A stretch of DNA of 64,000 bases from a virus: positions 1-64,000 of the IMG/VR virus record IMGVR_UViG_3300046453_000081. The stretch is one strand, 5' to 3'. Numbering within the stretch: position 1 is the first letter of the stretch; each line of letters begins with the position of its first letter. A model generated the notes under the pieces. It made no database searches. It was not told the origin of the DNA and saw only the letters and a program-made list of their open reading frames with translations. The position numbers and the translations under genes were made by a program. Positions 40,763 to 49,998 of this stretch are shown here, piece after piece.

Positions 40763-41686
40763 TTAAAGAGTCATAAATACCTGTTTGACTTCTGACAACT
40801 CTACAAATGTACAACCATCATGAATAAGTTCAATAAATTGTGCCTTCGCTTCAGTTGGTGTCAATTCTAAAATAACATCTTCCTTGTCTTCATCTTCATC
40901 AACAACAAATGTAAATTTGTATGTTTGTTTTTCTTCTAACACCTCTTGACCTTCTTCTTCGCTAATGTATGGAGAATGTTCAAAAATGCATTCGCAAAGT
41001 TCTTCAAGTTTTTCTAGTTCATCAAGGTCTTCAGTTGTGACAAGCATTTCTTCACAACATGATTCACAGCATCTATCACAGCACTCATCTTCATCTTCAT
41101 CTTCATCTTCATCTTCATCTTCATCTTCAAAATCATCTTCAAAATCATCTTCAAAATCATCTTCATCTTCAAAATCATCTTCAAAATCATCTTCAGACAT
41201 GTTTAGTTTTTCCAACTGAACTTTAGAGAAAATAATCATTTGCTCTGCATTTCTCAAGTAGGCTTCATTAACGGTGTCAGTTTTTAAAATGACTCCTGTT
41301 GTTAAGAATTTGTACACAGTAAAGATTTCTTCAATAAGTTCGTAAACAATTTTTGCCCTCTTATCTACGTCAATAAGGTCAGGCAGATAGCTATATTTCT
41401 TTAATGAGCCTTCAATTTTCTTTAATTCATCATCATATCCATCGAATGAGATTGAGTACCAATATTGGTCACTGCCTACACCATACTGAGTGTATTGTTC
41501 GTCTTCTTCCTCGATAACAACAAGCCAAACAATGTCTTCTCCTGTGGTTGCTACAACATTGTCAATTGCGTTTATACCTGAGTATAAATGATATTGGAAC
41601 ATGAATAATGGGTCTGTAGAATCTGTCCTAGACTCTAATTGATTTTTGTATGCTTCTTCCCATGAGTTAAAAATTGCTTTTTTCAC
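40763..41686 (-). CDS. Highly acidic protein with an ED/EDDF repeat tract and a CCxxCCxxCC cluster
   Basis: 307-aa ORF containing EDDFEDDF...EDEDEDECCDRCCESCCEE. Confidence 0.75.
   Translation of the reverse strand: MKKAIFNSWEEAYKNQLESRTDSTDPLFMFQYHLYSGINAIDNVVATTGEDIVWLVVIEEEDEQYTQYGVGSDQYWYSISFDGYDDELKKIEGSLKKYSYLPDLIDVDKRAKIVYELIEEIFTVYKFLTTGVILKTDTVNEAYLRNAEQMIIFSKVQLEKLNMSEDDFEDDFEDEDDFEDDFEDDFEDEDEDEDEDEDEDECCDRCCESCCEEMLVTTEDLDELEKLEELCECIFEHSPYISEEEGQEVLEEKQTYKFTFVVDEDEDKEDVILELTPTEAKAQFIELIHDGCTFVELSEVKQVFMTL
41085..41195. repeat. Coding tandem repeat: (TCATCT)x7, (TCAAAATCATCT)x3, TCATCT, (TCAAAATCATCT)x2
   Basis: Perfect 6-mer and 12-mer repeats read directly from the sequence. 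Confidence 0.95.
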
Positions 41687-41954: not shown

Positions 41955-42977
41955 TTATTTAGCACTTGTATCGGCTAAAAATAAAAACTCTAGGTTCTCA
42001 AATGTGTCTTGACTTACTGAATTTTTTAGTTTATTGACACTCTTTTCTGTTTCGGCTTGTGTTAGTCTCATATGAAGCTGAACTAACTCCACAACCTCTA
42101 GAATGAAATCGTCATCGTATCCCAAAACGTTAAGTATAGAACAGGCTATTTGTCCGCTTACATTCTCATGTCCATAGTAACTAGCAGTGCGCTTAGGCTC
42201 TCCATTAATGTTGGTGAATGTCTTTGTATGTCCCTTCCCTACATCGTGAAATACAGCCACCCAAAGCATTTTAAGAAAGTCTTTAGCATGAGTTATTTTA
42301 TCTTTATTGTAGTTGTCATAAACATATTTATAAACATGGTAAATATGTCTACTAACACTAAATGTATGGTGAGGATTGTCCTGTGGGAGTTCAAATATGT
42401 TTGAAAAGTCAGAAAACTGACAAAGCCCTCTTGGAAAATTGAACATTTCTTCATATGACCAATCATTTAGCAACCATTTTTCAAAATTATCCTTAGTAGT
42501 AAATGGTGTCATATATTTATCATACTTTATCTCAATATTGTCCCAACCTTCAGAATATGTTGGAATTTGTAGGTTTTTAAACATTTTCAGTATAATGTCC
42601 TTACCAACTGTTCTATTTCTATGCAAATCCCTCATTATACATGCTGAATGTGACGTATTAAAATAAATTATATTTCTATTATATTTAAAGAACTCATTGT
42701 TAAAATGAACTCGCTTCTTTCTGCTGATATTAGTTGCATCAATAATGACATTTTTTCCTGAATTTAATAAAACCTTTGCCTGATTGTACATGTATTGAAA
42801 AATTTCAGTATTCTTATCCTGTCTTGATACATCTCCAAACAAAGTCTCTCTTAAACTATCAGAAGAAAGAATTTCAGCATTTAATACACTGGCATTCTCA
42901 ATAGCCCATGAAGACTTCCCTGACGATGGCATCCCACAAAGCATATATACTGTCGCATTTGACATAATTACCACCAC
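41955..42977 (-). CDS. Polynucleotide kinase (AAA_33) fused to an HD phosphohydrolase domain
   Basis: GMPSSGKS, SSDSLR, IIDATN, R...R; QDNPHH...H, FHDVGK, YYGHENVS, LHM. Confidence 0.85.
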   Translation of the reverse strand: MVVIMSNATVYMLCGMPSSGKSSWAIENASVLNAEILSSDSLRETLFGDVSRQDKNTEIFQYMYNQAKVLLNSGKNVIIDATNISRKKRVHFNNEFFKYNRNIIYFNTSHSACIMRDLHRNRTVGKDIILKMFKNLQIPTYSEGWDNIEIKYDKYMTPFTTKDNFEKWLLNDWSYEEMFNFPRGLCQFSDFSNIFELPQDNPHHTFSVSRHIYHVYKYVYDNYNKDKITHAKDFLKMLWVAVFHDVGKGHTKTFTNINGEPKRTASYYGHENVSGQIACSILNVLGYDDDFILEVVELVQLHMRLTQAETEKSVNKLKNSVSQDTFENLEFLFLADTSAK

Positions 42978-42983
42978 CCCTAA

Positions 42984-43319
42984 CTATCTTCTTTTTCTTG
43001 ACGAACTGTTTCTAAATTTAGACTTAGAAAAACTTGACTTACTTTTAATGAAAGATTTGGGTTTAGATTTATTTTTTCTAATATTGATTGACTTGGATTT
43101 GCTTTTAGAAAATGCTGATTTTTTTCCATGCTTATTCTTTTTTAGGTCAATACCATAACAATCTTCGTCACCTTCGAGTAAATCTTCTTTATCACAATCT
43201 TCTATCTTATGCTGATTAGAATTATTACTTGTAGGAGTATTTACCACTGTCTTTTGCACTCTTCCACATGCGGTTAACAGAAGTAGTAAAATCATTGTTA
43301 ATATTGTAAATTTTTTCAT
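42984..43319 (-). CDS. Putative lipoprotein with a Lys/Ser/Arg-rich C-terminal tail
   Basis: MKK...LLLLTAC lipobox; tail KSKSKS...SSRKRR. Confidence 0.65.
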   Translation of the reverse strand: MKKFTILTMILLLLLTACGRVQKTVVNTPTSNNSNQHKIEDCDKEDLLEGDEDCYGIDLKKNKHGKKSAFSKSKSKSINIRKNKSKPKSFIKSKSSFSKSKFRNSSSRKRR

Positions 43320-43740: not shown

Positions 43741-44277
43741 CTACTTTTTCAATTCTTTTTTAAATTCACCATAGCTTCCAAAATTATCTTTAATTTCTTT
43801 CTTCAGTGTAGCAATATCAACACCATACTTATGTAACATGTAAGCTGTTGCGTCACTATCTGTTAAATCACTGAAGTTACAAATTGGGCAAAGTGATTCA
43901 GGAACACTGTATCTAAACTCATAATCGTTCAATAAGTCTCCCCAATCGAAATCATCTTCCTTGGAATCGTCAAGGTAATCTGCTAAATCTTTCTCGTATT
44001 CTTTTACCATGTCAGCATAGTAGTTGTCGCCACGCTTGGCATCATAAGATTCTACATATTCTTTGTATCTTTCAATGTTTGCTTTGACTAGTTCTATAAC
44101 CACTGCTCTTTCATCGTAGCTCTCCATATGGTCTTCGCAAATGGTGTGTCCATTCTCGCATTCAACCATATTTGCTTCACTTAAACACATATCCCAACCA
44201 CTTTCGTCATGACCACAACTATCACAAATAAAACTACTTGAACTACTGTTTGTTACAAATGATTTACGTACTTTCAT
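43741..44277 (-). CDS. FVTNSSSSSF-motif protein D (Cys-rich, probably metal-binding)
   Basis: MKVRKSFVTNSSSSSFICDSC...CENGHTICEDH...CPIC. Confidence 0.85.
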   Translation of the reverse strand: MKVRKSFVTNSSSSSFICDSCGHDESGWDMCLSEANMVECENGHTICEDHMESYDERAVVIELVKANIERYKEYVESYDAKRGDNYYADMVKEYEKDLADYLDDSKEDDFDWGDLLNDYEFRYSVPESLCPICNFSDLTDSDATAYMLHKYGVDIATLKKEIKDNFGSYGEFKKELKK

Positions 44278-44298
44278 TATATCTTACACTCCCCTATA

Positions 44299-44715
44299 TT
44301 AATATTCTTCTCTAATGAGAATAATCTCTGAATCTTTTTTTGGTAAACTTCTCAACAACCCTGATAAAGTTTCATCATTGTAATCCACACTAATATCTAC
44401 AATACCATAACCATCATTAATGTATTCCATCATTTTATTATATTTATCAGTCAAGTAATCATCGTCTTTTAAAATGTCTTTAATAGTACGTGCTTGACTC
44501 CAACCGTATTGGTAAATAAAATGTCCATCTAATTCTTCCTCTGTTGTAATTGCATTATCAAAATCAAAGAGTTGTTTAACCATAAGGTAAGATGATTTAA
44601 AGATTACAGGAACACTCTCCATTGCTTCTTCAGTTTCTCTTAATCCCTCACTTTTAAATCCAATAACAAAGCTACTGCTAGAACTGTTTGTTACAAATCC
44701 TTTCCGTATCTTCAA
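44299..44715 (-). CDS. FVTNSSSSSF-motif protein C
   Basis: TTG start at 44715 overlapping the upstream TGA: MKIRKGFVTNSSSSSFVIG. Confidence 0.85.
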   Translation of the reverse strand: MKIRKGFVTNSSSSSFVIGFKSEGLRETEEAMESVPVIFKSSYLMVKQLFDFDNAITTEEELDGHFIYQYGWSQARTIKDILKDDDYLTDKYNKMMEYINDGYGIVDISVDYNDETLSGLLRSLPKKDSEIILIREEY

Positions 44716-44987
44716 TCTCGCCACTTCCAATCTATTAAATTTGTATTAACACCAATTTTTTCAAGATATTCAACCATATCAAAGTTGTCCATACTTGTAT
44801 AGAAATCAAGATGCTCTCCATCATCACGAATAGACCAACCATCATATTCATGGCAAGGCTCACCAAACTCCCATGCTCTGTCTTCATGTCCCATAATTAA
44901 CTCTAGTTGAAATGGTGAAATGAATTTTCTACTAATAATAAAACTAGAACTGCTTGAATTTGTTACAAAGCCATTTCTTATCTTCAA
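44712..44987 (-). CDS. FVTNSSSSSF-motif protein B
   Basis: GAGGT RBS, TTG start: MKIRNGFVTNSSSSSFIIS. Confidence 0.85.
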   Translation of the reverse strand: MKIRNGFVTNSSSSSFIISRKFISPFQLELIMGHEDRAWEFGEPCHEYDGWSIRDDGEHLDFYTSMDNFDMVEYLEKIGVNTNLIDWKWRD

Positions 44988-44993
44988 AGTAAA

Positions 44994-45323
44994 TTACCTC
45001 AATTTCTTGAATGCAAATTTTGTCAATGAACTACCAACTTCTTCATCTAATTCATTTTTCAACCAATTAAAGAATTCATCCTCAGTAAATTCTTTAATTT
45101 CATTGACGTTGTTAAGCATAAGCTTCATCATGTAACCATCGGATAGAGCATATTCATACATTTCATTTACTTCAATGTTAATATTTCCTGTTGTCAATTC
45201 AAAAGTAATTTCATTAATGTATGAACTACCATAATCACAGGTTGAGCAACCGCCATATGAATGTGTATCAGTGTATATTTCGTTGATTCCACCATTTTTC
45301 ATTTCTAATATCATTAATATCAC
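44994..45323 (-). CDS. Acidic CxxC protein embedded in the FVTNSSSSSF cluster
   Basis: HSYGGCSTCDYGSSY. Confidence 0.7.
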   Translation of the reverse strand: MILMILEMKNGGINEIYTDTHSYGGCSTCDYGSSYINEITFELTTGNINIEVNEMYEYALSDGYMMKLMLNNVNEIKEFTEDEFFNWLKNELDEEVGSSLTKFAFKKLR

Positions 45324-45336
45324 TCCTAATAGTTTT

Positions 45337-45666
45337 TTATTCTCCTACTTCACCATAATAAAGTTTAACTAAATAAGTAGGTATATCTACATTGAGTTTT
45401 TCTTTTACTTGATTGACAAATTGTTCTTTCATCTGTGGGAGTGTCATAGTTTCCATTAATTCCTCAATATCAATGCCCGCATAACTTACATAATCGTAAT
45501 CGCCATAGAAGTTTACTACTTTGCCATCACTAATACCATAACTACATCTAGGTTTGTCAATTTTTTCTGCTTTCAATAATTCCTCAATAGTATTGTCATT
45601 ACTTACCCCAACAATTACAAAACTACTAGAACTTGAGTTCGTCACAAAACTTTTACGTATTTTCAA
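45337..45666 (-). CDS. FVTNSSSSSF-motif protein A
   Basis: GGGAGGT RBS, TTG start: MKIRKSFVTNSSSSSFVIV. Confidence 0.85.
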   Translation of the reverse strand: MKIRKSFVTNSSSSSFVIVGVSNDNTIEELLKAEKIDKPRCSYGISDGKVVNFYGDYDYVSYAGIDIEELMETMTLPQMKEQFVNQVKEKLNVDIPTYLVKLYYGEVGE

Positions 45667-45682
45667 AATGCATATACCTCCC

Positions 45683-46126
45683 TTATTTTGTCATTGCATC
45701 TTTTACTAGCTGTGAAACTTGCTTCATATCTACCTTACCTTTTAATCTCTGAGACAGGTACTTCATGATATTATCAATTTCACCATTTTCGGCTAAACTG
45801 ATTACATGTGCAATTACTTCTAACACTTCTGTTGCAGACATTTGTTTTGGCAAATATGTTAATAATAACTCTTTTTCTGCAACTTGTTTTGAAGTATCAC
45901 GCCCCGCATTGACCAATGACTCTACTTCTTGATTAATTGTTTTAAGGTTTTTGCTAATTGCATCAATAATGTCTGATTCAGTCAACTCAGTCATTAATGT
46001 TAACTTTTTTTCAACTTTCTTTTTTTCGATAGTCGCAATTAGCATTCTAAGAGTGGACAACTTATCTTTTTCTTTATTACGCATGGCTTGTTTCATATCA
46101 TTCTGAATCGTTTCAATTAGTTTCAT
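45683..46126 (-). CDS. GatB/YqeY domain protein
   Basis: IQNDMKQAMRNKEK..LSTLRML...GR....E..LL..YLPKQMS...KGKVDMK.VS..VK. Confidence 0.88.
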   Translation of the reverse strand: MKLIETIQNDMKQAMRNKEKDKLSTLRMLIATIEKKKVEKKLTLMTELTESDIIDAISKNLKTINQEVESLVNAGRDTSKQVAEKELLLTYLPKQMSATEVLEVIAHVISLAENGEIDNIMKYLSQRLKGKVDMKQVSQLVKDAMTK

Positions 46127-46449
46127 TTTGTTGGCTCTCCTGTCTTTTTCTTTTCATCTTTAAAAGTGTATAATTTTAATGAAAATAATTTTTTAAATGT
46201 TGGAAATGTAATACCAATAATCATTGGTGGAATATCGAATATCATTCTAATAACATGATATAGTCTTAAATCCTTTTTATACTGTCCAATTAAAATATGT
46301 TTATATCCTTTTTTAAAGCCATATTCTGTTACTTCATCCCAAACATCATAAGCACGTAATAGGAAATATATTGCGTAAACAATCCATAGAATCATTTGCC
46401 ACCAAGTTAAAGACACAAGTCGTGTCAACCAAAAATCAATATCAAACAT
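46123..46449 (-). CDS. Membrane protein
   Basis: Hydrophobic segments; likely start at MFDIDFW. Confidence 0.55.
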   Translation of the reverse strand: MFDIDFWLTRLVSLTWWQMILWIVYAIYFLLRAYDVWDEVTEYGFKKGYKHILIGQYKKDLRLYHVIRMIFDIPPMIIGITFPTFKKLFSLKLYTFKDEKKKTGEPTK

Positions 46450-46574
46450 TTTATCACTTCTCCTTTTATAAAAATAACTTACAGATGCTCTCCATAATAC
46501 TGTCAAGAGCAGATAAGAAAACTATCAATATGAGAGTGAATGCAAAGGGGTGTTTGTCTGCAAACTTCCACATA

Positions 46575-46775
46575 TTATTCAGATTCAATCCATTCAAATT
46601 CTAATTCAACTAGGTCTTGAATATGGTCATTCTTGTCTATGAATCTGTACCAAGTATCATTCCATTCTGAAAGACCTACACATGTCACAATCTCACCTAT
46701 TACAAAATCATGCGCCCCTGCTTCTTCGTAATCAATTACTTTTGCTTGTTTTCCTATTTTCATTATATTTAGCAC
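46575..46775 (-). CDS. Small hypothetical protein
   Basis: ORF with RBS immediately downstream of the radical SAM gene. Confidence 0.55.
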   Translation of the reverse strand: MLNIMKIGKQAKVIDYEEAGAHDFVIGEIVTCVGLSEWNDTWYRFIDKNDHIQDLVELEFEWIESE

Positions 46776-46778
46776 TCC

Positions 46779-47867
46779 TTAGACATTAAAAATATTTTTC
46801 TCTTCTCTATTGCACAATGTTATTTGGTTCACTACAGGACATCCACCCATGCATAATTCCCTTTGTTTGCAACCTCCACAGCTATATCTTAAATGATTGC
46901 GGAATTGATTAAATAAATCACTATTCCAACCTTCCTCAATAGAATGAGTATTTAAATCTATTGCCCATCTTTCTTTTTGGTTGTCAAATGAACATGGTAG
47001 CAATTTATTGTCAGGTGTAATATAACAACTGTACCTACTTGCTTCGCAAGCATCTGTACTATCCATATTGATATTCTTATTAAAATTGACTAATCCTGCC
47101 ATATTGCAACTATCAAACCCAATTTGAAAGTCAAAATTCATTTGGTCAATGATGCTATAAAATTCTGCAACCTTTGGGTCATCAACTTTTAATACATTTG
47201 CTTCACTACCTAATCCAACAGGTTTATGCAATAAGAAAACAACCGCATTAATTCCTTTAGGGAAATCATTGTTTTTTAATCTCTCGATAGCTTCATCAAT
47301 ACTATTGTTGCCAAGAACATAATGAATATTGGTTGAGATTCCTGCATCAATAAACATTTGTAATGCTCTATAAGTGTGAGATTGACGATAGAAGCTGACT
47401 GCCACAGAACCCGCAAATTCTTTTGTAATCTCTACTTCCTTCTTAGTTAGTCCAAGCCCACTAGTCGTGTAGTTGGGTGCAATCCCATTTTCTCTACAAT
47501 AACTCATAATTTCAGCAAACGACTCATGCTTGTTGACATCTCCTCTGCCCCCTAAAGCAAACTGAAATGAATTACCTTTTGATTGGTCAACAATTTTTTT
47601 GAAAGTTTCTAAGGACATATTTGGTTCTGTTTTTCCTAATCCGTTTTGATAGCATTCTACTCCTGCTTTAACACATAGACCTGATTTACCATGTATACAG
47701 CTTCCCATAATGCCAACGTCAATTAATTCAGGGTACGATGCCATAAATGGGTCAATCCCTGTATCCTTACCGTTGTCAATGATTCCTGTTCTTACATAGA
47801 ATCCTGTCTCAGTATTAAACATAGATACAAATTTATTTTCCTTATCTACTCTAGTAATCATGCTCAT
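46779..47867 (-). CDS. Radical SAM/SPASM-domain protein with a non-canonical cluster motif
   Basis: CIHGKSGLCVKAGVECYQ, ALGGRGD, YTTSG, KPVGLG; C-terminal CEASRYSCYITPD..LLPCSF...CGGC...LCMGGCP...C. Confidence 0.9.
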   Translation of the reverse strand: MSMITRVDKENKFVSMFNTETGFYVRTGIIDNGKDTGIDPFMASYPELIDVGIMGSCIHGKSGLCVKAGVECYQNGLGKTEPNMSLETFKKIVDQSKGNSFQFALGGRGDVNKHESFAEIMSYCRENGIAPNYTTSGLGLTKKEVEITKEFAGSVAVSFYRQSHTYRALQMFIDAGISTNIHYVLGNNSIDEAIERLKNNDFPKGINAVVFLLHKPVGLGSEANVLKVDDPKVAEFYSIIDQMNFDFQIGFDSCNMAGLVNFNKNINMDSTDACEASRYSCYITPDNKLLPCSFDNQKERWAIDLNTHSIEEGWNSDLFNQFRNHLRYSCGGCKQRELCMGGCPVVNQITLCNREEKNIFNV

Positions 47868-47913: not shown

Positions 47914-48252
47914 TTATACACTATAATTATTTGGATGATATTGTAATGATTGTTCAAATCTAATTTCTTCACCATCTTCATTCTTAACAAAATGGTATAC
48001 TCTAACATCTATGCCACACTCAACACAATTCGCTACACCATGTGCTATTCCCCATTGAATATATAGAGATTCATCACACAACCAACATGTTTTAGATGGT
48101 TTTACAAAAGCTTTTAGATATTCATTTAACAAATCTTCTGATATTCCTTTTGGAATTCTTATTAAGTCCTCGACTGTTGCAACAGGAAGCTTTTTTGCTT
48201 CTTCAAGTTTCTTTGCAGTTTCTTCTTTATTCATTGTATTAGTTACCTCCAA
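47914..48252 (-). CDS. Zinc-finger-like protein
   Basis: CWLC...WGIAHG...CVEC. Confidence 0.6.
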   Translation of the reverse strand: MEVTNTMNKEETAKKLEEAKKLPVATVEDLIRIPKGISEDLLNEYLKAFVKPSKTCWLCDESLYIQWGIAHGVANCVECGIDVRVYHFVKNEDGEEIRFEQSLQYHPNNYSV

Positions 48253-49276
48253 TCAGATTATTCACATGCTCAACTGCTGTTTCAAGTCTTTCTTGATAAT
48301 TGCCTGAAATACTGACATAATTAACATAAAATTCTTTTAACAATCCTTTTAGATATTCATTGTTAGATTCACGTATACCTTGTTCCCCATGAACTCTAGT
48401 TCCATCATCCACCCACTTTACATCAGGTTCTAGGAACAACCATAAATCATATTCTTGCATATGAGCGATTGCTTCTAAAATAGGATTCCACTTCTTCAAG
48501 TATAGCAAAGAATAGTATTGAGTGACTATTGCTTCTGTGTCAATAAAAAGAACTTTATTCGCCTTTTGTAATTGCACTTTTTCATGGTATTTATGTTCGA
48601 AAGCTATTTCAGGATAATCAGATGGCAATGTTATATCGTCACATCCACCAAGTCGTTCATAGAAGGTTCTGCCAAATTCTTCTACAAAAGTTGTGTTATA
48701 TAGACTTGCTAAATTTTTAACTAGAGTTGACTTTCCGCAACTTTCCGTCCCTACAATTACTACCTTCTTAGCAAAGTATGGTCTAACAATTTCAGGTAGC
48801 ATGTCCCAATGTTTCATCGCTCCCTCAGTTCTTAGTTCAGTGGCTGATATATTATAATTTTCTCGTTTAGCATCAACAACAACATGTTGTGCTGTCGGAT
48901 ACAGTTTACTAAAGAACTCACCATATTCATGTTCTGAACTGAATACTACATCAATATGTTTGCCAATAGCTTTTTTAATACCATCTGCCCCTTTTTCCCA
49001 ATCCGAGAACTGTCCTGTTTGTTTCTCCTCTATTGCATGAACGTGGACATGGGACATATCCTTTGTTATCTGTTTCCACCATCGTAGTCGAATATTGAAA
49101 GGCACATGCTCCATTTTTGTATTTTTAAATAATACATTTTTCTCAAATTCATCATCATATGAAACTATAATGTGTAATTCGTCCACCATTGTACTTGCCT
49201 TAATCATTGCGTAAACATGTCCATTGTGGATAGGGCTGAATTTACCTCCATAAAAACCAACTTTACCAACTGTCAT
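48239..49276 (-). CDS. nadR: NadR-type NMN adenylyltransferase / ribosylnicotinamide kinase (no HTH)
   Basis: GKFSPIHNGH, ISATELR, GTESCGKST, FIDT, WVDDGTR. Confidence 0.92.
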   Translation of the reverse strand: MTVGKVGFYGGKFSPIHNGHVYAMIKASTMVDELHIIVSYDDEFEKNVLFKNTKMEHVPFNIRLRWWKQITKDMSHVHVHAIEEKQTGQFSDWEKGADGIKKAIGKHIDVVFSSEHEYGEFFSKLYPTAQHVVVDAKRENYNISATELRTEGAMKHWDMLPEIVRPYFAKKVVIVGTESCGKSTLVKNLASLYNTTFVEEFGRTFYERLGGCDDITLPSDYPEIAFEHKYHEKVQLQKANKVLFIDTEAIVTQYYSLLYLKKWNPILEAIAHMQEYDLWLFLEPDVKWVDDGTRVHGEQGIRESNNEYLKGLLKEFYVNYVSISGNYQERLETAVEHVNNLIGGN

Positions 49277-49968
49277 TATCTCTCACCTTGTTCCTTTGAT
49301 AGTTTCAGCCAATTGATGAACCCAAATACCGAGTTGACCAAAAATGCTGACCACATCACTAACATTGCGTAATCGTTCCCGCCTTTTGAAGCCAATACAA
49401 TGAACCACATTGTAACCGATAATACATTTACTACAATCCACAAAACCCACTGTTCTGCAAATCGTTTTAACATTAAAAATTGTGCAATGATAGATAACAC
49501 TACCGCTATTGAATCCAATCTAACCTGTTGCCCACCAATTGCATTTAGAATATAAGCATAAATACTGGAAGTGACCACCATTATTGTAATTAAGTACACC
49601 CAACCTTTATTTGTTAAACGATTAACTATAACATCTTCACCTTTAACACTGTTATCTGTCTTATGCTTGCTCCACATATAGATACCAATAAATTGAATTG
49701 GAAGATAGAATAAGCCATTTAGCATTGACTCTCCGTATAATCCATATGTGTAGGAGATATACGTGTAGGTGACTGTTTGAACAATACCAAAGTAGTAGTT
49801 TGATATTTTGCCTTTTGCAACAAGCAGAACGCAAAGCATACCTGTTATTGAACTTACAAGTCCAATTAATGAATCATGGAGTGCAATAAAGAGATATATG
49901 TTTACTCCTGTGAATGTTAATAGCCACATCTTTTCGAATAGTGTCCAATCCTTTAGTAATTTGTTCAT
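49276..49968 (-). CDS. pnuC: Nicotinamide riboside transporter PnuC
   Basis: Multi-TM protein; LVAKGKISNYYFG, LYGE, Q..G...W, EQWVLWIVVN, G..NW; adjacent to nadR. Confidence 0.92.
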   Translation of the reverse strand: MNKLLKDWTLFEKMWLLTFTGVNIYLFIALHDSLIGLVSSITGMLCVLLVAKGKISNYYFGIVQTVTYTYISYTYGLYGESMLNGLFYLPIQFIGIYMWSKHKTDNSVKGEDVIVNRLTNKGWVYLITIMVVTSSIYAYILNAIGGQQVRLDSIAVVLSIIAQFLMLKRFAEQWVLWIVVNVLSVTMWFIVLASKGGNDYAMLVMWSAFLVNSVFGFINWLKLSKEQGER

Positions 49969-49998
49969 TATAATTATCACCCTTCATGTTTAAGTTTT

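Follow-up and report, generated by a model that had tools for sequence, protein, structure and literature searches.

Proteins sharing an N-terminal tag are linked to a radical SAM/SPASM enzyme in phages and plasmids: a candidate protein-maturation cassette

Introduction

Why would four otherwise dissimilar phage proteins, encoded downstream of a gene for a radical S-adenosylmethionine (SAM) enzyme, begin with nearly the same 16 residues? The question is raised by positions 43,741 to 47,867 of a 64,000-nucleotide stretch of DNA (the window), which is a low-GC (~32%) segment of the 109-kb IMG/VR virus record IMGVR_UViG_3300046453_000081 and carries nearly all its genes on the minus strand. There, a radical SAM/SPASM enzyme gene is accompanied by four co-oriented genes (A to D) whose products start with the consensus MK(I/V)RxxFVTNSSSSSF, referred to here as the tag. 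An initial interpretation made without database searches (the sequence-only reading) proposed that this motif is a portable mark through which one maturase acts on several client proteins. We find that the linkage of enzyme and tag spans unrelated phages, prophages and plasmids, that the modelled fold of the enzyme is maturase-like, and that the client bodies are mostly unrelated to one another. With a probability of about 0.55, we favor the interpretation that the locus is a two-component protein-maturation cassette, in which the enzyme recognizes and covalently changes the tag on several client proteins.

Full-text searches found no description of the motif or of such a phage radical SAM/SPASM system, in agreement with the sequence-only reading, which knew of no functional account. 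Should the tag indeed be modified by the enzyme, the system would rank among the largest uncharacterized protein-maturation systems in viruses; leader-guided radical SAM/SPASM chemistry would be extended from small peptides to folded proteins, and the 16 residues would form a portable handle, possibly usable as an enzymatic protein tag. Since cultured phages carry the enzyme, Klebsiella phage Matisse together with tagged proteins, the hypothesis is directly testable.

Results

Four genes near the enzyme share an N-terminal tag

The radical SAM/SPASM gene lies about 1.1 kb upstream of the tagged genes, as had been described, and the common N-terminus was recovered in all four open reading frames (ORFs). 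Lengths are given in amino acids (aa) and pI is the isoelectric point.

46779-47867, minus strand: radical SAM/SPASM enzyme, 362 aa, identified by the Pfam and NCBIfam SPASM models and an AlphaFold model
45337-45666, minus strand: tagged protein A, 109 aa, pI 4.75, TTG start; tag at 45619-45666
44712-44987, minus strand: tagged protein B, 91 aa, pI 4.67, TTG start; tag at 44940-44987
44299-44715, minus strand: tagged protein C, 138 aa, pI 4.54, TTG start at 44715; tag at 44668-44715
43741-44277, minus strand: tagged protein D, 178 aa, pI 4.44, ATG start, Cys/His-rich; tag at 44230-44277

The proteins begin MKIRKSFVTNSSSSSF (A), MKIRNGFVTNSSSSSF (B), MKIRKGFVTNSSSSSF (C) and MKVRKSFVTNSSSSSF (D), a likeness far beyond chance. 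No copy of the tag other than these four was found in the window or in the whole 109-kb record. As first reported, A, B and C use TTG starts, each preceded by a Shine-Dalgarno-like sequence, and the stop of B is overlapped by the start of C as TTGA. Because tagged genes usually start with ATG, the TTG starts of the window are a local habit. Intergenic gaps measure -4 to 68 nt from the enzyme gene through D. A terminator scan of this strand returned a single weak terminator-like hairpin, located within an ORF.

Pairs of tags among A to D are identical at 29-37 of 48 nucleotides and 13-15 of 16 residues, and 5-8 codons per pair differ synonymously. Because the codons differ in this way while the residues match, the likeness of the tags is kept at the protein level and does not reflect a recent DNA repeat; a repeat finder registers the copies only as short, diverged matches. 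The Ser codons are exactly those first described, and the codon comparison agrees with the early conclusion that the Ser run is not a DNA repeat.

The tag is strictly N-terminal and widespread

The composition of the tag was examined in 335 unique tagged proteins from the loci that we fetched, with the following result.

Positions 1-5: M1; K2 in 99%; I, V or F at 3; R4 in 93%; any residue at 5
Positions 6-9: D (53%) or G (43%) at 6; F7 in 92%; V8 in 96%; T (66%) or S (32%) at 9
Positions 10-12: N10 in 100%; S11 in 100%; S12 in 99%
Positions 13-18: S13 in 93%; S14 in 86%; S15 in 96%; F (83%) or Y (16%) at 16; two hydrophobic residues at 17-18

Residues 1-16 are always the N-terminus of the protein, and the start codon stands exactly six codons before F7 in 367 of 419 tag-like matches. 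A 34-column profile of the tag, a search that the sequence-only reading had put forward, retrieved the representatives of 29,736 clusters formed at 50% identity (E<=0.001) from 1.84 billion proteins, with matches nearly always at residues 1-33. Tagged genes occur in gut Clostridia phages, jumbo phages, SPbeta-like phages, and cultured T4-like phages of Klebsiella, Enterobacter and Escherichia.

Other searches returned little. Scans of A to D against Pfam, NCBIfam, PHROGs and PADLOC gave no indication of meaning, their sole match being phrog_7397 (function unknown), which covers the tag. A word-indexed protein search recovered just 3 relatives of protein A, megablast of the locus gave no match, and a tblastn search of the phage collection with protein A also gave none, probably owing to low-complexity masking. 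The ESM Atlas gave only unnamed viral clusters.

Two other identities were considered for the motif and rejected. The segment (G/D)-F-V-(S/T)-N↓S resembles block G of a C-intein, but ten residues are far too short for a mini C-intein and no recurrent N-intein partner was found; N-S-S could be read as an N-glycosylation sequon, for which no linked glycosyltransferase was found. Separately, the tag profile matches twice, or internally at residue 30-180, in proteins P0004-P0013, which are probably read-through or mis-called fusions of adjacent tagged genes.

Enzyme and tag travel together

The sequence-only reading had suggested examining whether the tag co-occurs with this radical SAM family. 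The association is very strong, both from tag to enzyme and from enzyme to tag. A scan for the tag pattern across 2.9 million viral contigs gave at least 594 matches, with 67 loci among the matches listed. Almost every locus found in this way holds 2-8 or more tagged genes, all co-oriented and with the tag at residues 1-16. When the 1,899 ORFs of these loci were clustered, the enzyme was the commonest co-occurring family among the matches listed; it lies within 8 kb in 53 of 68 tag-found loci, again among the matches listed, and always on the same strand. It usually stands directly upstream of the first tagged gene, in surroundings that are otherwise unrelated. Among 8 enzyme-negative tag records that were searched whole, three carry the enzyme elsewhere on the contig.

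Starting from the enzyme leads to the same pairing. Viral loci retrieved with the enzyme carry tagged genes on its own strand in 74 of 80 cases and on the opposite strand in 0, and 5 of the 6 tag-negative loci have less than 3.2 kb of downstream sequence, being cut by contig ends. In loci from bacterial genomes, mostly metagenome-assembled genomes of gut Clostridia, tagged genes accompany the enzyme in 75 of 80 cases, and in all 39 of those spanning at least 15 kb. A plasmid collection of 72,556 records contains 7 with the enzyme and 7 with a tagged protein, and these are the identical records. Altogether, the pairing of enzyme and tag was seen in ~150 further phage and bacterial loci.

The pair is also present in cultured phages. 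In the T4-like Slopekvirus Matisse the enzyme is CPT_Matisse164, and the tag is carried by CPT_Matisse113 and CPT_Matisse118, which both begin MKIRSGFVSNSSSSSF and lie ~20 kb from the enzyme; phages KP15 and RB16 carry at least the enzyme.

The tag variants are distributed along the enzyme tree. The T9 form accompanies the clade with a full SPASM domain and the S9 form accompanies the basal clade (a basal grade on the tree), in essentially one switch; a cellular tagged family, described below, holds both variants.

The enzyme has a predicted maturase-like fold

Radical SAM enzymes are recognized by a partial triosephosphate isomerase (TIM) barrel and a [4Fe-4S] cluster held by three Cys of the loop after strand 1 (canonically CX3CX2C), and the SPASM subgroup by a C-terminal seven-Cys motif (CX9-15GX4C ... 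CX2CX5CX3C ... C) that binds two auxiliary clusters. The window enzyme was modelled with AlphaFold from 26 homologues (predicted local distance difference test score, pLDDT, 92; predicted template modelling score 0.91). In this model three Cys follow strand 1 (C57, C65 and C72, spaced CX7CX6C), which places the enzyme in the radical SAM superfamily. Its sequence further assigns it to the SPASM subgroup, the C-terminal motif C330-X2-C333-X5-C339-X3-C343 being complete. Pfam detects SPASM alone (PF13186, 2.9e-6; 27.9 bits against a 21.5-bit cut-off), and NCBIfam detects the SPASM domain model TIGR04085 (33 bits against a 27-bit cut-off); Pfam PF04055 did not match the window enzyme and did match a relative with the canonical loop. 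Weak NCBIfam matches over residues 68-343 were to MftC, PqqE, NirJ2 and a tungsten-enzyme maturase, all far below the family cut-offs.

Among 31 dereplicated homologues, C57, H182, D252, C254, C274-E275, C292, C333 and C72 are essentially invariant, C57 and C72 being conserved in at least 30 of the 31. The CX7CX6C spacing is found in the window and most close relatives and CX5CX3C in some, and a second group of enzymes combines a canonical CX3CX2C, CX6CX2C or CX9CX2C loop with a shortened, twitch-like SPASM domain.

Foldseek ranked SuiB, PqqE, anSMEcpe, CteB, TigE, BtrN and SkfB as the top matches of the model, which aligns with radical SAM structures overall at Z 16-26. With VIA-align, SuiB reached Z 26.5 over 322 residues (model residues 1-354) and SkfB Z 24.0 (model residues 2-347); anSMEcpe, PqqE, CteB and ChlB gave Z 20-21 in alignments that begin at about residue 30-45. 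Residues 1-45 of the enzyme form a beta-rich N-terminal extension with strands at 4-8, 13-17 and 24-26. The SuiB and SkfB alignments span this extension, which thus has a counterpart only in maturases equipped with an N-terminal peptide-binding domain.

Some features of the enzyme gene are worth recording in their own right. The cluster-binding loop is unusually plastic for one enzyme family. In one locus (L007:4388-6926) the homologue is interrupted by an intein (boundaries C↓LPAGVPV... and ...GLLVHN↓C) with a separate HNH endonuclease ORF inside it. The insertion point is precisely the third Cys of CX3CX2C; as a rule, inteins insert at essential sites. In another (L052:1458-3317) a GIY-YIG-like homing-endonuclease ORF is continuous with the enzyme ORF in a 619-aa frame, and would be a second mobile element targeting the enzyme gene.

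Tagged proteins carry mostly unrelated, acidic bodies

The sequence-only reading had seen no obvious similarity among the four proteins after the tag, and had named whole-length paralogy of one fold as an outcome that would count against it. Three lines of evidence agree that the tagged proteins are not whole-length paralogues: alignment of tag-stripped profiles, a body made of leucine-rich repeats, and the free N-terminal tail in the model of D. Eleven client classes were compared with hhalign after removal of the tag, and most pairs scored below 5% probability; the exceptions are classes 2/26 (96%), 28/30 (95%) and 1/28 (32%). Client lengths range from ~80 to 458 aa, and the longest, from locus L061, carries BspA-type leucine-rich repeats behind its tag (4e-35). 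No convincing Pfam family was found among 103 tag-profile proteins scanned. The client bodies are thus mostly unrelated; what they have in common is acidity, with a median pI of 4.62 (81% below 5), versus 7.62 (22% below 5) for other ORFs from these loci that are comparable in size.

Proteins A to D fall in four different recurrent classes. A belongs to class M28, with homologues in 8 other loci, B to M1 (~30 homologues) and C to M4 (25 homologues). The class of D is the most widespread, and an alignment of 35 homologues drawn from both enzyme clades shows conserved C18, C21, C40, H44, C47, C130 and C133, a pattern that suggests metal binding. The AlphaFold model of D has a pLDDT of 89.7 overall and averages only 48 over residues 1-10; residues 1-12 are coil and S13-I17 form a strand of a small N-terminal sheet. 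In the monomer, therefore, the residues best conserved across the family are predicted to lack structure, as is typical of a segment acting by partner binding. Searches of the PDB and BFVD gave no significant match to the fold of D.

A cellular form occurs in Avs2-like operons

In 7 plasmids of Agrobacterium, Rhodobacter and Rhizobium, a gene for a protein with SMEK_N and NACHT domains is followed directly by the genes of the enzyme and of a 131-132-aa tagged protein that begins MKIK(L/M)DFVSNSSSTSF. PADLOC scores the SMEK_N+NACHT protein as Avs2 (8e-27). The cellular tagged family is well conserved and found in many bacteria, and it aligns with the class of C at an hhalign probability of 77% when the tag is removed and 91% when it is kept. 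The enzyme-tag system is therefore not restricted to phages, and its cellular form resides in Avs2-like defense operons.

An operon of comparable layout has been described for KpAvs2, with Avap1, a radical SAM protein, and Avap2, a small (~130 aa) DUF6375-like protein (Bechon et al. 2024, PMC11564622). Avap2 physically binds the KpAvs2 sensor and is required for defense, and Avap1 is required against T2 and dispensable against SECphi18; the authors called the roles of both proteins unknown (PMC11564622). DUF6375 proteins from two Avs2 operons (L242:4862-10220 and L243:4213-9584) begin MKIW.E.GSEHS.NLV.IG, lack the NSSSSS tag and show no detectable kinship with the tagged family (hhalign 0.1%). 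PF19902 (DUF6375) matched nothing in the window genome at E<=10 and none of the clients at E<=1. The radical SAM gene beside DUF6375 in both operons encodes a protein devoid of SPASM that is distantly related to the window enzyme at 93% hhalign probability (E 2.8e-7), with an N-terminal F-N-x-x-T-G in common. On the enzyme tree the plasmid enzymes are nested among those of phages, with the DUF6375-linked enzymes set apart on a long branch as outgroup. Because the DUF6375 proteins have no tag and the enzymes are only distant kin, we regard the published KpAvs2 operon as a sister system and not the same one.

In both systems the sensor is a signal transduction ATPase with numerous domains (STAND), accompanied by a radical SAM gene and by a small protein, the plasmid version placing a tagged protein behind SMEK+NACHT. 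They differ in setting, in that KpAvs2 is a host defense and the window holds a phage cassette with several clients. Together they show that a radical SAM enzyme with a small partner is a recurrent accessory of Avs2-type sensors, and the occurrence in Avs2-like operons ties the system to the open roles of the KpAvs2 accessory proteins (PMC11564622). As a side note, the N-terminus of DUF6375 and the tag are laid out in a loosely similar way, with MKI followed by a loop that contains Ser and then by a hydrophobic strand, a likeness that is not significant.

Discussion

Comparison with known maturation systems

The closest parallels are the maturases of peptides that are made by ribosomes and then modified post-translationally (RiPPs), such as SuiB/StrB of streptide, SkfB, CteB and PqqE, which share with the window enzyme the SPASM auxiliary-cluster domain and, in SuiB and SkfB, include its best structural matches. 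As in RiPP systems, the maturase gene adjoins substrate-like genes that share an N-terminal recognition sequence and have a variable remainder. The clients, however, are proteins of ~80-458 aa with confident folds and not short leader-core peptides, and their conserved part comprises merely 16 residues beginning at Met1. The cassette has no recurrent protease or exporter, the enzyme being the only conserved partner among the clustered loci. The window enzyme also scores far under the cut-offs of all named maturase families, and its loop is CX7CX6C instead of CX3CX2C.

Anaerobic sulfatase-maturing enzymes (anSMEs; AtsB, anSMEcpe) are likewise SPASM enzymes of similar size that act on full-length proteins, with chemistry at a target Ser or Cys, and anSMEcpe aligns with the enzyme model at Z 21 over residues 45-355. 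In contrast, anSMEs lack the N-terminal extension, no NCBIfam anSME model matched the window enzyme, and sequence searches from the enzyme toward anSME, made for the catalytic base, did not reach it. The tag has no (C/S)-x-(P/A)-x-R, with neither Pro nor Arg after the Ser run, and the clients have no sulfatase domain.

In the FXSXX-COOH/Fxs systems of conflict operons, a radical SAM/SPASM enzyme stands beside highly variable proteins that share a short conserved peptide with F-x-S, a motif known to be acted on by SPASM enzymes of conflict systems (Kaur et al. 2020, PMC7159879). The tag also holds such a stretch, F7-V8-(S/T)9. The Fxs peptide, however, is C-terminal, is released by a peptidase and is part of vWA-MoxR/AP-ATPase systems; the enzyme was matched by neither Fxs nor Xye models, and the invariant N-S-S-S-S-S run has no counterpart there.

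A proposed maturation cassette and its alternatives

In the model that we propose, the tag has the form M-K-(I/V)-R-x-(D/G/S)-F-V-(T/S)-N-S-S-S-S-S-(F/Y). Its flexible N-terminal end would dock as an extended strand on the beta-rich N-terminal extension of the enzyme and thread into the barrel/SPASM cavity, where the 5'-deoxyadenosyl radical would take a hydrogen from a tag residue and thereby bring about a covalent change. Three-residue cyclophane ('triceptide') chemistry creates carbon-carbon links of the F-x-S kind, and one candidate reaction is such a cyclophane between Phe7 and Thr/Ser9. Others are the oxidation of Ser to formylglycine, as carried out by anSME, and an ether cross-link or epimerization within the N-S-S-S-S-S run. 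One enzyme would serve many clients, much as a RiPP maturase serves many precursors with a shared leader; the clients would be folded proteins, with no sign that the tag is removed. Given that the clients are acidic and diverse and have a cellular homologue inside Avs2-like immune operons, they are probably early host-takeover or counter-defense effectors. Binding of the tag by the enzyme, its covalent change, the reaction type and the role of the clients are the parts of this model that we infer.

Several observations weigh against this interpretation. The computed evidence presented here fits covalent modification and mere docking alike. The enzyme is equally distant from all characterized SPASM enzymes, so that homology favors none of the candidate reactions. 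The T9/S9 pattern is best read as co-inheritance and is weak evidence of co-evolution, and the inclusion of S13-I17 in the folded domain of D implies that part of the tag may be structural. Five tag-bearing viral records have no enzyme, all of them incomplete (5-79%), and in the window itself the enzyme and the first client have three unrelated genes between them.

The first of these points bears directly on an alternative in which the tag is a docking element and not a substrate. The clients would then be interchangeable adaptor or regulatory subunits that plug into the enzyme by beta-augmentation, with the tag unchanged, and their variable bodies (leucine-rich repeats, zinc-ribbon-like and others) would bring the enzyme to host proteins or nucleic acids, or switch it. 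Gene linkage fits this explanation equally well, the bodies do include binding modules in the leucine-rich repeat client and the Cys/His-rich D, and in the KpAvs2 operon Avap2 binds the sensor and is needed for defense, with Avap1 needed only against some phages (PMC11564622). On the other hand, the near-total invariance of N10, S11 and S12 across ~30,000 clusters and both enzyme clades is stricter than is usual for a docking strand, a strictly N-terminal and unstructured end suits threading into a buried active site, and the nearest structural relatives of the enzyme modify the peptide that they bind. We consider docking without modification unlikely, if far from negligible.

Two further explanations were weighed. 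T4 provides a precedent for the view that the tag is an assembly or sorting signal, such as a hetero-oligomer strand, a Ser/Asn zipper or a capsid-targeting peptide, with the enzyme merely a syntenic neighbor: in that phage unrelated internal proteins share an N-terminal capsid-targeting peptide, which is likewise short and common to otherwise unrelated products. The sequence F-V-T-N-S-S-S-S-S-F-V-I is prone to form a strand, as S13-I17 does in the model of D, and the tagged genes of Matisse lie 20 kb from its enzyme. Such a signal would, however, not account for a linkage that persists across unrelated phage lineages with differing flanks and in plasmid operons without capsid genes, nor for tags that are never found opposite the strand of the enzyme in viral loci found through it; moreover, unlike the T4 peptide, the tag has no link to prohead protease or capsid genes, and neither a prohead protease nor a cleavage motif travels with it. 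We judge this explanation very improbable. A similarly slim chance attaches to the proposal that the clients are ordinary diverged paralogues of one small fold, whose N-terminal strand and loop would be catalytic or ligand-binding, for example a phosphate-binding Ser loop. Small phage proteins evolve fast and some tag-stripped classes are related (2/26, 28/30 and 1/28), but most class pairs remain below 5%, lengths of ~80-458 aa and one leucine-rich repeat body do not suit a single fold, the model of D puts residues 1-12 outside its fold, and the linkage to one enzyme family would be left unexplained.

The maturation cassette can also be extended into a more far-reaching proposal, which we put forward tentatively and regard as doubtful. 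Under it, the tag would act as a universal handle through which one phage enzyme puts a new type of radical post-translational modification on whole proteins, namely a changing set of acidic effectors that disarm host immunity, and bacteria would have copied the enzyme-tag pair into Avs2-type sensors as a guard/decoy or activation step. Were this true, tag modification would stand at the center of a phage-host arms race.

Other genes of the locus

Four untagged genes are interspersed with the cassette in the window.

46575-46775, minus strand: ORF of 66 aa between the enzyme and A
46123-46506, minus strand: hydrophobic ORF of 127 aa between the enzyme and A
45683-46126, minus strand: YqeY-like protein between the enzyme and A (Pfam YqeY, 2.7e-25)
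44994-45323, minus strand: phrog_20043 protein of 109 aa between A and B (PHROG match)

None of them recurs in the 67 related loci, each forming a singleton cluster; they are passengers and not conserved parts of the cassette.

Farther downstream, the minus-strand gene at 41955-42977 encodes an AAA_33 P-loop kinase domain joined to an HD domain, with weak matches to Pnkp and to a CCA-adding enzyme. Its relatives occur near the cassette in gut phages, where they adjoin an RNA ligase and an RlaP-like nucleotidyltransferase, neighbors that suggest an RNA-repair module. The small protein encoded at 42984-43319 (minus strand) has a lipoprotein-type signal (MKKFTILTMILLLLLTAC↓G) and a tail rich in Lys and Ser, and could be a phage surface or exclusion lipoprotein. 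At 40763-41686 (minus strand) lies a gene for a 307-aa protein in which an extended series of (D/E)-D-F-E and E-D repeats precedes a CCDRCCESCCEE cluster. On the other side of the enzyme, at 48239-49980 (minus strand), a NadR-like gene (345 aa) adjoins a PnuC-like gene (234 aa), a pair that suggests salvage of nicotinamide adenine dinucleotide (NAD) from nicotinamide riboside.

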